Shown: positions 10,760 to 13,739 of the stretch, in pieces | Position numbering within the stretch: position 1 is the first letter of the stretch | How the letters are laid out: the number at the start of each line of letters is the position of its first letter | From: a virus | Lineage: Duplodnaviria; Heunggongvirae; Uroviricota; Caudoviricetes | Length of the DNA stretch: 64,000 bases | Virus record (IMG/VR): IMGVR_UViG_3300028413_000003 | Location: 104,465 to 168,464 of that record | Direction: 5' to 3' (one strand) | Program-made: the position numbers and the translations under genes | The notes under the pieces: model-generated | The model's database searches: none | Seen by the model: only the letters and a program-made list of their open reading frames with translations | What the model was told of the DNA's origin: nothing

Positions 10760-11626
10760 ATGAAGCAATACCATGAAGCTCTAGAATTTATTCTAGCCAA
10801 CGGCAAAGATCGCGACGACAGAACAGGTACAGGTACACGTGGAGTATTTGGATATCAAATGCGATTTGATTTACGCAAAGAATTTCCAGCAGTGACTACT
10901 AAGAAACTTGCATGGAAAAGTGTTGTTTCGGAATTGCTTTGGTTTTTAGAAGGCAGCACCGACGAACGTAGGCTTGCTGAAATACTATACGAAAAACCAA
11001 GAGAAGAACTAATAGGCAAGAATACCATATGGACTGCCAACGCAGACAAGCAGGCGCGAGACCTAGGATACAAGAACACCCCTACAGAGAAGGATCTAGG
11101 GCCCGTGTACGGCCATCAGTGGCGAACGTGGGATGCACAGCTAGGATACGTCGACCAGATAGCACAAGTGCTAGAAAGCTTGCACAATGATCCGTACAGC
11201 AGAAGACATATTGTAAATTCCTGGAATGTCGACCGTGTTCCTGTAATGGCGTTGCCGCCTTGTCATACCATGTTTCAATTTTATGTACAAGATGGAGAAT
11301 TAAGTTGCCAATTGTATCAGCGTTCAGCAGATGCACCACTTGGGTTGCCATTTAATATTGCCAGTTACAGTTTGCTTACACATATGTTTGCACAACTCCT
11401 TGGGCTAAAGGTTGGTGAGTTTATTCATACCTCTGGAGATTTACATATCTATCAAAATCAAATGGAAGGAATAAAAGAACAACTTAAGAGAGATCCGTTA
11501 CCAGGACCGACATTGGAAATGCCTGAGTTTTCAAATTTAGATGAGTTAATAAAAACAAAACCTAGTGATTATAAGTTGATAAATTATAATCACCATCCTG
11601 AAATTAAAATGCCGTTTGCTGTGTAA
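10760..11626 (+). CDS. thyA: Thymidylate synthase
   Basis: DRTGTGT, ELLWFLEG, GPVYGHQWR, MALPPCH, YQRSAD, PFNIASY. Confidence 0.97.
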   Translation: MKQYHEALEFILANGKDRDDRTGTGTRGVFGYQMRFDLRKEFPAVTTKKLAWKSVVSELLWFLEGSTDERRLAEILYEKPREELIGKNTIWTANADKQARDLGYKNTPTEKDLGPVYGHQWRTWDAQLGYVDQIAQVLESLHNDPYSRRHIVNSWNVDRVPVMALPPCHTMFQFYVQDGELSCQLYQRSADAPLGLPFNIASYSLLTHMFAQLLGLKVGEFIHTSGDLHIYQNQMEGIKEQLKRDPLPGPTLEMPEFSNLDELIKTKPSDYKLINYNHHPEIKMPFAV

Positions 11627-11632
11627 TTTTTC

Positions 11633-11675
11633 TTGCTGTTCCTTTCAATAAGATAGATAAAGAAAGGAACAGCAA
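11633..11675 (+). promoter_or_regulatory. RBS-sequestering hairpin upstream of the GIY-YIG remnant
   Basis: Perfect 14-bp inverted repeat TTGCTGTTCCTTTC / GAAAGGAACAGCAA; the right arm holds the SD and the A of ATG 11675. Confidence 0.7.
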
Positions 11676-11896
11676 TGCAAGGAATGTATTATATAGAAAA
11701 TACTAAAACTCAGCGTAGATATTATGGAAGCTCGTTTAATATAGAAAAAAAAAAACTAACTCAACATTAACAAGATTTAAAAAAAGGAAAACATCATAAT
11801 ATACAACTACAAAGAACTTATAACAAGTATAGCAAATTTACACGCAACGATAAATCGTATAAGACAAGGAAAACTCCCAACAAGGGGAACTTTTAA
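11675..11896 (+). pseudogene. Degenerate GIY-YIG homing endonuclease
   Basis: MQGMYYIENTKTQRRYYGSSFNIEK, frameshift in an A-run, then LTQH*QDLKKGKHHNIQLQRTYNKY; truncated. Confidence 0.8.
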
Positions 11897-11954
11897 AGGA
11901 GTAAGTATCTATGAAATATAACCCGATGCCTAGTATCAAAGCGCCAATGGCAGT

Positions 11955-12194
11955 ATGACAGGCAAAGTATCAATCAAAAACAAATATGCATGGTTACCAA
12001 AAAAGCTTACCAGCAGCAAGTGGGTGTGGCGGCGTCGTTATATAAAAATTAAGATGACCATTGCTCCGATTGCGGGAACACCGCTTCATGTAGTAACGGT
12101 GGAATCATACACACCAAATGACTATATGCTGTTATCGCTCACACGAGATTTTAAAAGAGAAGCAGAAGAAGGTAACCGTGCGTACTATTACTAG
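11955..12194 (+). CDS. Hypothetical protein, AWLP family copy 1
   Basis: KYAWLPKKLTSSKWVWRRRY, similar to 12620-12895. Confidence 0.6.
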   Translation: MTGKVSIKNKYAWLPKKLTSSKWVWRRRYIKIKMTIAPIAGTPLHVVTVESYTPNDYMLLSLTRDFKREAEEGNRAYYY

Positions 12195-12366
12195 TAGAGA
12201 AGAAGACAAAGCAGAGACCTGGAAAGCATTAAACAAGCTGCCAGTACAAGTACCAACAGATGCCGCTTTATTTTATTGTCCGTATATTCCGTTACAAATT
12301 GTCGGAGCCGTTCCTTCATCTACGACGCCCATAAAATTTAAAACACGGTATGAGATAACACAATGA
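12178..12366 (+). CDS. Mini-protein: REEDKAETW leader plus C-terminal fragment of a gp23-type major capsid protein
   Basis: DAALFYCPYIPLQ...FKTRY matches the T4-like gp23 C-terminal motif; GTG start at 12178 chosen. Confidence 0.7.
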   Translation: MRTITSREEDKAETWKALNKLPVQVPTDAALFYCPYIPLQIVGAVPSSTTPIKFKTRYEITQ

Positions 12367-12623
12367 GTAGAGAAGAAGATAAAGCAGAGACCTGGCGCAT
12401 AATAAGTCAGCCGCAGGAACGTCCTAATATTAAAGTATTAAAACAACAAGTACATAGCAAGTCGCGGGAATTGAGCGCAACGTGGGCCGTTGAAATGGAT
12501 GAAGAAATGGAGTCTTATTACGGAATAAATGTCAAGGAAGAACTGCAAAATGCTGTTATAAAGGAAATGGCCGATAGCATCGATCAAGAAATACTAAAAT
12601 CATTAAAGGGGAAGTTTAAATGA
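12363..12623 (+). CDS. Mini-protein: REEDKAETW leader plus central fragment of a gp23-type major capsid protein
   Basis: KQQVHSKSRELSATWAVEM...YGINVKEEL...EMADSIDQEIL aligns by eye to gp23 KQVIEAKSRQLKAAYSIEL...HGMDADAEL...EIMLEINREVV. Confidence 0.7.
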   Translation: MSREEDKAETWRIISQPQERPNIKVLKQQVHSKSRELSATWAVEMDEEMESYYGINVKEELQNAVIKEMADSIDQEILKSLKGKFK

Positions 12624-12895
12624 TGGGAGTTAATTCAGGATATACGCCAGGGCCTGCATTGCCAGAGCGTGCTATTCAGCAAAGATGGGCATGGCTTCCG
12701 CTCAAAAGCAACAGTGGTAAGTGGATTTGGAGAAGTTACTATGTACAGGTAAAAATTTACCAGGATGCTGATGGTAAGACACCGATAAAAGAAATTTACT
12801 GGAATTATATATTTACTGAAAATGAATATCTAGTATGGCTACTAAAGAATCCTGTGCCACTACCTCGAGGCAAGCTACAGAGTGTAGGAGTATAA
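12620..12895 (+). CDS. Hypothetical protein, AWLP family copy 2
   Basis: RWAWLPLKSNSGKWIWRSYY. Confidence 0.6.
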   Translation: MMGVNSGYTPGPALPERAIQQRWAWLPLKSNSGKWIWRSYYVQVKIYQDADGKTPIKEIYWNYIFTENEYLVWLLKNPVPLPRGKLQSVGV

Positions 12896-12986: not shown

Positions 12987-13739
12987 TTAATAGTCGCCGT
13001 ATACCCGAAGGACTTCTTTAACAGCAGCATGTCTTTCGATGTCGCTGTGTTCAAACTCAACAACTGAAATATGAGTTGCATTAAATTCTTTCACTTGTTC
13101 AACAAAGTTAAGTAGTCCATTGTCTTTGAGCCTGTCTGCCTGTGCAAGGTCGCCGGTAACAGTCATCTTAGATCCTGTTCCGATACGTGTTAGCAACATC
13201 TTCATTTGATTAGGTGTTGCATTTTGCATTTCATCTGCAATAATATAGGCGTCTTTGAATGTTCTACCACGCATGTATGCAAGTGGAGAAATTTCAATCA
13301 CGCCTTCTGCAATCATGTTTTCAATTTCATTAGCGTAGAAGTATTCTCTAAATACATCAAAAATAGGTCGTGTCCAAGGAGCCATCTTTTGCTCTAGTGT
13401 ACCAGGCAGGAAGCCCAAATCTTCATCTGCGCTCACGGCTGGTCTTGTAACAACAATGCGATCAACATTCCCATCTAGAAAGCTTTTTACTGCCACCTGA
13501 CACGCCAACATGGTTTTGCCGGTTCCTGCAGGACCTATTCCGAAGACTATGTCTTTCTGCTCGTCCGTTAGTTGTAACACGTAAGTTTCTTGATTTCTAT
13601 TTCTTGGGATGATATCGACAGTTTTCTTCTTCTTTGGAAGAAAACTGTTAATTTTAACAACATTAGTGTTTGTGTTGTTGGTATTATTTTTCAAATAGTT
13701 CGATTGCTTTTTATTATTGTTAGCTCTAGCTTTACCCAT
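12987..13739 (-). CDS. phoH: PhoH family ATPase
   Basis: GPAGTGKT, TRPAV, LGFLPGTLEQKMAPW, YMRGRTF, DEMQN, GDLAQAD. Confidence 0.95.
   Translation of the reverse strand: MGKARANNNKKQSNYLKNNTNNTNTNVVKINSFLPKKKKTVDIIPRNRNQETYVLQLTDEQKDIVFGIGPAGTGKTMLACQVAVKSFLDGNVDRIVVTRPAVSADEDLGFLPGTLEQKMAPWTRPIFDVFREYFYANEIENMIAEGVIEISPLAYMRGRTFKDAYIIADEMQNATPNQMKMLLTRIGTGSKMTVTGDLAQADRLKDNGLLNFVEQVKEFNATHISVVEFEHSDIERHAAVKEVLRVYGDY

Follow-up and report, generated by a model that had tools for sequence, protein, structure and literature searches.

Why does an uncultured giant phage related to T4 that holds a complete gene for its major capsid protein gp23 also hold, within an operon for nucleotide metabolism, two very small genes that attach one and the same short peptide to different pieces of this protein? 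We investigated this question for a stretch of 64,000 nucleotides (the window), which represents positions 104465-168464 of a 251-kb IMG/VR virus record with an estimated completeness of about 71%.

The cassette between td and phoH

Downstream of genes for DHFR and thymidylate synthase (td, 10760-11626, + strand, assigned by a Pfam match) there are four small, tightly packed ORFs on the + strand, and a convergent gene for a PhoH-like ATPase (phoH, 12987-13739, - strand) closes the td-phoH slot. The first gene of this coupled cassette, X1 (11955-12194), has td as its upstream operon neighbour and encodes a basic protein of 79 aa (pI 10.0), and the last one, X2 (12620-12895), encodes its basic paralogue of 91 aa. 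Between them lie the two genes in question, F1 (12178-12366, 62 aa) and F2 (12363-12623, 86 aa). X1 runs 17 nt into F1, and the F1/F2 and F2/X2 overlaps consist of an ATGA each. F1 starts with GTG in the window and with ATG at the same position in the related lineage L005, in which the stop codon of td also overlaps the start of X1. The predicted products of F1 (pI 8.9) and F2 (acidic, pI 5.2) carry complementary charges. A previous reading of the window, made from the sequence only, had described tandem ORFs of 62 and 86 aa as intact and coupled and as lying far from any head gene. This description is accurate in all its parts, the real gp23 gene (393 aa) being located at a distance of about 121 kb in this record. 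The genome region also has DnaJ-, ClpB- and deformylase-like genes.

F1 comprises a 5-residue N-terminus, the ten-residue peptide SREEDKAETW (called the handle in the following), a short linker and the C-terminal P-domain hairpin of gp23 (FYCPYIPL ... P-loop ... FKTRY), which according to the Pfam alignment occupies residues 26-60 (12253-12357, + strand). In F2, the handle follows right behind the initial methionine, and after a linker the gp23-derived block (residues 16-81 in the Pfam alignment; 12408-12605, + strand) consists of a P-domain strand (KSRxLSAxW), a short acidic helix and the spine helix. A fusion of F1 and F2 by -1 frameshifting was considered and rejected, since stop codons occur in the F2 frame up to 4 codons before the ATG and there is no in-phase slippery site. 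Scanning of the locus for sigma-70 and T4 late promoters yielded nothing, and the same result was obtained when the locus was searched by megablast against phage records, against Rfam, or for look-alikes in the Atlas.

The flanking proteins X1 and X2 are 33% identical (BLASTP, E = 2e-7) and belong to a widespread family of phage proteins of 60-126 aa with 61 representatives in 1.84 billion proteins and the consensus K-F/Y-A-W-x-P ... S-G-K-x-I-W ... Y-T-x-N-E-Y-L. For an AF2 model of X2 (pLDDT 77; three strands and one helix) there was no convincing fold match. The slot has other contents in other lineages (td-55aa-X-X'-phoH in L028/L029, td-X-78aa in L026, and an arrangement without X1-F1 in L017), and comparison of these variants indicates that it is a turnover hot spot. 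We considered X1 and X2 as dedicated partners of F1 and F2; since more distant relatives hold X genes in the slot without any fragment gene, this idea is weakened and the X proteins probably are not dedicated partners.

Behind td, positions 11633-11958 of the window have the appearance of a homing-endonuclease footprint, which is absent from L005, L007 and L017. A perfect stem of 14 bp (11633-11646/11662-11675) ends at the ATG of a truncated GIY-YIG ORF (11675-11770), and more GIY-YIG-like sequence extends past the stop codon of this ORF to about position 11895. Positions 11911-11958 are a relic of the last 13 codons of an L005/L007-type td (YNPMPSIKAPMA is identical), and the TGA of this relic overlaps the ATG of X1 exactly as intact td does in L005. 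When compared to the td DNA of L005, td of the window is a mosaic (89-99% identity over nt 1-540 and 59-70% from about nt 540 to the end), which looks like a co-conversion tract brought along with the endonuclease cassette. Also, just downstream of the real gp23 gene there is an ORF of 441 aa (L001:2587-3912, - strand) with an EFNGIYWH-type motif that by eye is Vsr/endonuclease-like and which is probably a homing endonuclease; an HNH homing endonuclease is annotated at the matching place beside gp23 in phage MIJ3.

Descent of F1 and F2 from gp23 and selection on both genes

Residues 26-60 of F1 match positions 312-348 of the Gp23 profile PF07068 with 30.7 bits (E = 2.8e-7), residues 16-81 of F2 match positions 129-194 with 47.1 bits (E = 2.9e-12), and both scores exceed the cut-off of 24.4 bits for this profile. 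PHROG 138 (major head protein) agrees for both proteins. In BLASTP comparisons with the resident gp23, F1 is 54% identical over 35 aa, its block corresponding to resident residues 327-361, and F2 is 43% identical over 63 aa (E = 1e-14), its block corresponding to residues 148-210. These data bear out the earlier proposal of a C-terminal gp23 piece in F1 and a central one in F2.

The resident gp23 is 67-71% identical to gp23 of Vibrio phage 2.275.O, Phosso, CBB, GAP32 and MIJ3, which are giant myoviruses of 290-470 kb. In the F1 and F2 blocks, the gp23s of five relatives are much closer to each other than to the fragments; identity between the fragments and the resident gp23 amounts to 43-57%, and all gp23s of the clade (five relatives compared) are about equally distant. 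This indicates that the fragments either are old or evolve fast, and it does not allow their donor to be named. In the alignment of F2 with gp23, the strand pattern K-x-R-x-L-x-A-x-W and spaced positions of the spine helix are invariant, and the short helix between them differs, being more acidic in F2 (EMDEEMES) than in gp23 (EAAQDAQA). F1 retains FKTRY as in T4 gp23, and the resident clade has F-M/L-T/S-R-Y at this place.

With the retained strand pattern, spine-helix heptads and CPYIPL...TRY hairpin, F1 and F2 resemble the family of gp23 and the vertex protein gp24 (PF07068, HK97 fold). In contrast to full Gp23, they cover only 35 and 66 of the 376 profile positions, lack the A domain, the N-arm and the propeptide, and are separate coupled ORFs with a foreign handle, placed in the td operon 121 kb from the head genes. 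Both ORFs end straight after their blocks, short of a complete HK97-type fold, and full-length gp23 is a separate gene. Since A domain, N-arm and propeptide are missing, F1 and F2 are unable to form capsomers. Judged by their sequences they belong to the Gp23 family, but as fragments they fall outside its structural definition.

The handle is encoded by a direct repeat of 30 nt (12193-12222 in F1 and 12366-12395 in F2, both on the + strand), 29 of the 30 positions being identical, so that the shared block with a single mismatch that had been noticed before is real and specifies the same peptide in both ORFs. Comparison across lineages shows that the shared N-terminal part continues in a weaker form for about 7 residues beyond these ten (K/R-A/I-L/I-N/S-x-x-P). 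Among six copies from three lineages the handle peptide is invariant, seven synonymous sites and no nonsynonymous site differing, and pairwise comparisons count 0 nonsynonymous versus 45 synonymous differences (pN 0, pS 0.64), which makes the handle the most constrained part of F1 and F2. The two copies share their synonymous variants by lineage, AAA-GAG-ACC in the window and AAG-GAA-ACT in L007 (592-621/768-797), and the three variants of L007 occur in neither copy of the window. This pattern suggests occasional homogenisation or gene conversion between the repeats, which are 173 nt apart.

Beyond these two, no further copy of the handle was found in the 251-kb genome at the protein or DNA level, and within IMG/VR the pattern EEDKAETW was encountered only on an L005-type contig. 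These results give no support to a broad modular system of a leader joined to various capsid epitopes, such as the sequence-only reading had envisaged. There are exactly two fusions, and a third gp23 fragment gene of the genome (see below) lacks the leader. Two readings of the handle were discarded. Local alignments of the handle to the N-termini of five gp23s were no better than those of shuffled handles (p 0.46-1.0), so that an origin from the N-terminus of gp23 is unsupported. As a short N-terminal peptide common to several small proteins of a T4-related phage, the handle is reminiscent of the capsid-targeting sequence of T4 internal proteins. However, the latter is an N-terminal leader that is removed by gp21 and ends in an (L/I)-x-E site, whereas SREEDKAETW is acidic, lacks any (L/I)-x-E cleavage motif and is not N-terminal in F1, where 5-10 residues precede it. 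The resident gp23, by contrast, has Y-L-S-E ahead of its mature part.

A profile search of the whole record detected the real gp23, F1, F2 and a third fragment gene, P0071 (130 aa; G000:C1:61283-61675, equivalent to L002:1489-1881), which lies outside the window, 55 kb from F1 and F2 in the same genome and within a run of small + strand ORFs. P0071 matches positions 2-90 of the Gp23 profile; its first 45 residues or so represent the most conserved N-terminal block of gp23 and are followed by an unrelated conserved domain (KKHYQHF ... FAYDKD). Full-length homologues with 45-83% identity exist in five other lineages (pN/pS 0.35-0.55), and none was found in cultured phages. In an all-against-all comparison of the 1885 ORFs of the 251-kb record, gp23 was the only gene with fragment copies. 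On the basis of these homologies, the genome holds a small set of gp23-derived mini-genes.

Dozens of further 'small Gp23 proteins' (P0009-P0070) are encoded on ENA contigs of 100-334 kb. Nearly all of these candidates, on contigs of 320-333 kb, are near-identical to gp23 over 40-70 residues and then continue as junk, and we rejected them as frameshifted gene calls. Most likely they reflect frameshift errors in the assembled genomes of related giant phages, and they are a trap for anyone counting capsid mini-genes.

A length-restricted search for F2 homologues among 5.8 billion proteins yielded proteins of equal length with 80% and 64% identity from the L005 and L007 lineages, and F1 is intact in the same lineages (84% and 65% identity). 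Both have the complete cassette td-X1-F1-F2-X2-phoH with four intact ORFs, and start codons and overlaps are kept. The more distant lineage L017 has the order td-F2'-X2'-phoH, in which F2' (68 aa) displays the handle MSREDKAETW and lacks the second half of the spine helix. The pair F2-X2 is thus kept in a fourth lineage, and X2 is found behind F2 wherever F2 has the handle. Neither F1 nor F2 is present in L026 and L028, which are more distant relatives, or in any cultured relative. An unrelated phage contig (L018:2908-3132) contains an ORF of 74 aa in which an F2-type core (K-K-R-A-L-T-C-K-W-T-V-E-M-D-Q-E-L) is combined with a different N-terminus, MNKRNFLKSIFGLSIL, that resembles a weak twin-arginine (Tat) export signal.

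Pairwise dN/dS values were 0.37-0.47 for F1, 0.41-0.61 for F2, 0.37-0.51 for X1 and 0.23 for td, and all indels among the cassette lineages are multiples of three. When neutral evolution was simulated at the observed divergence, both ORFs remained open in 6% of the trials for the window and L005 and in 0.7% for the window and L007; with nucleotide divergences of 11-28% across the three lineages, the joint neutral expectation for F1 and F2 to be open is <1e-3. In view of their conservation, the dN/dS values, the simulation and the constraint on the handle, we regard both as proteins that are translated and subject to purifying selection.

It is in this light that a trivial explanation has to be judged, namely that F1 and F2 have no function, are left over from a broken gp23 duplicate or from the traffic of homing endonucleases, and are open by chance. 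Remnants of an endonuclease and a true relic of the 3' end of td are indeed present in the slot, and a homing-endonuclease-like gene adjoins the real gp23. However, both ORFs have stayed intact in three lineages in spite of their divergence, and dN/dS values below 1, indels in threes, the pN of 0 for the handle and the kept start codons and overlaps contradict neutral decay and are unlike what pseudogenes display. Also, the order of the blocks is reversed in the locus, the C-terminal block preceding the central one, no decayed sequence lies between them, each block is preceded by the same in-frame handle, and a further piece, joined to another domain, is located 55 kb away, which excludes simple remnants of one broken capsid duplicate. 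We therefore consider relics a very improbable explanation that is largely refuted.

Segments of the capsomer edge and their possible roles

The resident gp23 was aligned to the solved T4 gp23 chains, and the numbering was checked against the residues named in PMC9546572. The F2 block corresponds approximately to residues 254-311 of T4 gp23 (P-domain beta-strand, short negatively charged P-domain helix and spine helix). Mutations that change head length are located in it at A268, A275, D285 and D287, two further residues (H282 and M284) are portal-whisker ligands, and G292, V306 and V307 are sites of gp31 bypass. The F1 block corresponds approximately to residues 445-479 (P-domain strand, P-loop and return strand FKTRY) and holds the bypass site A455 and the P-loop length sites T457, R460 and G461. 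The block of P0071 is equivalent to about residues 88-135, with the length sites A94 and G97, Met98, and the Gol region, which we take to be numbered 93-122 (P93-G122) in T4 gp23.

In this alignment, the blocks of F1, F2 and P0071 are the three discontinuous segments of the P domain, the outer edge of the capsomer, and each of the three clusters of T4 head-length mutations falls on one of them. By our analysis, the epitopes that CapRel and Lit recognise fall on these segments as well. The pattern cannot be put down to detection bias, because F1 and F2 contain essentially only handle, linker and block. The well-characterised T4 length mutations all cluster near the quasi-threefold axes, where capsomers are joined through their P-loops and through charge interactions of the acidic P-domain helix with basic P-domain strands (PMC9546572). 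The mapping makes each of the roles proposed in the sequence-only reading (decoy, dominant-negative inhibitor or assembly modulator) plausible and separates none of them. An AF2 model of F2 alone was of low confidence (pLDDT 55), with helices at residues 3-15, 48-53 and 57-84 and an unstructured strand region. The predicted complex of F2 with F1 scored 0.00, with an uncertain fold of the partner, and counts neither for nor against binding.

The position of the blocks within the capsomer contacts could mean that the fragments are poison subunits: such edge pieces would bind to the P-domain edges of gp23 capsomers of co- or superinfecting relatives and block growth of the lattice, and the resident gp23 would be protected by its divergence. 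In agreement with this idea, the retained blocks make the inter-capsomer contacts at the T4 quasi-threefold axes (PMC9546572), the acidic helix of F2 exceeds that of gp23 in acidity, the K/R residues of the strands are invariant, the fragments are equidistant from all gp23s of the clade, F1 shares FKTRY with T4 and departs from the motif of the resident clade, and the distribution of the genes is that of an accessory gene. On the other hand, self-poisoning must be avoided, the genes belong to a nucleotide-metabolism operon, and no natural phage precedent was found in the literature, so that on balance we regard poison subunits as unlikely.

The coincidence with sites of length mutations may instead point to a helper in the phage's own head assembly, which could serve as a folding template in trans, as an edge cap against premature polymerisation, as a modulator of size or curvature, or as a cement for a very large capsid. 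All three T4 length-mutation clusters and the gp31-bypass sites lie within the three fragment blocks, the residues that pack the core of the blocks are conserved, and the genome region encodes the DnaJ-, ClpB- and deformylase-like proteins mentioned above. However, the genes are situated 121 kb from the head module inside the td operon, and F1 and F2 evolve faster than td. L026 and L028, which have the same slot, do without them, as do all cultured relatives, and F1 and F2 are therefore not essential for this type of capsid. An assembly helper thus seems likewise unlikely to us.

Our favoured reading, which we hold tentatively and short of even confidence, is that F1 and F2 provide a free mimic of the capsomer edge that acts as a decoy. 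The fusion of a short, acidic, Trp-containing handle to two non-adjacent pieces of gp23 would have created F1 and F2, and translational coupling would supply the basic F1 and the acidic F2 in equal amounts. We infer that the two would pair and present a free copy of the P-domain edge, which could compete with real gp23 for whatever binds this edge. The likeliest partner would be a host sensor of the CapRel or Lit type that reads the P domain or short gp23 motifs. Made together with the enzymes of nucleotide metabolism, F1 and F2 would presumably be present before the late capsid protein and might thus function as an early immune decoy or blocker. Capsomers of gp23 themselves, rival or own, form a second plausible class of partners.

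Three features make us favour a decoy for sensors: the fragment genes sit in this particular operon, they are distributed patchily like accessory genes, and they evolve faster. Their accessory character is evident from their location in the td operon and in the variable td-phoH slot and from their absence in L026 and L028. Also in favour of a decoy, P0071 is conserved in five more lineages and no gene of the 251-kb genome other than gp23 is represented by fragment genes. Lit, which reads the Gol region, and CapRel are described as readers of short motifs, unlike Avs7/8/10, which envelop the fold (PMC13581612), and Gol, a region of 29 residues in the first quarter of gp23, is the most conserved part of this protein and is active on its own (PMC3014915). 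Against a decoy stands the observation that the block surface has diverged from the resident gp23 while the core is kept, which fits a requirement for fold or packing better than mimicry of resident epitopes. In addition, a fragment that binds a CapRel-type sensor might activate rather than block it. A natural self-epitope decoy of this kind was not described in the literature searched, and PADLOC and NCBIfam contained no match for F1 or F2.

The diverged block surface would also be compatible with exaptation of F1 and F2 to a job unrelated to the capsid, in which the blocks may serve as a scaffold that binds EF-Tu, the chaperonin or another abundant host protein, or in which the handle may be the active part and the blocks its carriers. 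The handle is the most constrained part (pN 0), Gol binds EF-Tu (PMC3014915), and folding of gp23 depends on GroEL-gp31, with bypass sites located within the blocks. However, three mini-genes each keep a different segment of the P domain, and gp23 is the only gene of this genome from which pieces were taken, which would be surprising if descent from a capsid protein did not matter, and we consider exaptation decidedly unlikely.

Returning to the decoy, a wider version would include P0071: as stand-alone early proteins, F1, F2 and P0071 might constitute a joint self-epitope decoy that blinds sensors of the CapRel, Lit or Avs type before the real capsid protein appears. We judge this extension to be rather unlikely; if true, the self-epitope decoy would be an anti-defence class not yet described.

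Relation to known capsid-derived and capsid-directed systems

To judge from conservation and homology, F1 and F2 are a real, selected, clade-restricted pair of fragment proteins of the capsid P domain, to which P0071 adds a third; they belong to a known protein family and are not a proven new system. No trigger of bacterial immunity is better documented than the major capsid protein (Lit, CapRel, Avs7/8/10), whose P domain controls how capsomers contact each other and how large the head becomes. With 62 and 86 residues, F1 and F2 are natural compact reagents for asking whether isolated capsid epitopes block sensors, poison rivals or tune assembly, and this question is testable since cultured relatives with 67-71% identical gp23 exist.

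Among known systems, the Gol region of T4 gp23 is similar in that a short segment of gp23 has an activity of its own, and a block homologous to it is present in P0071 (PMC3014915). Gol activates the e14-encoded Lit protease through EF-Tu (PMC3014915). It differs in being a part of gp23 and not a separate gene and in turning a defence on; F1 and F2 carry other blocks of gp23, and only P0071 carries the block that defines Gol. The trigger of CapRel(SJ46), Gp57, is a capsid protein with HK97 fold as well, but it is from a capsid family different from that of gp23 and is sensed as a whole protein with extra contacts in the A domain (PMC9712102), whereas F1 and F2 are fragments. Mini-genes for capsid fragments were not described in any paper found by full-text searches of the literature. 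Sid of P4, CpmB of SaPIs and Ccm of PICIs are small or alternative proteins that redirect or block head assembly through the contacts of capsomers. These redirectors are encoded by satellites, and Sid and CpmB are not capsid fragments, while Ccm is a full-length capsid homologue. In contrast, F1 and F2 are encoded by the phage itself.
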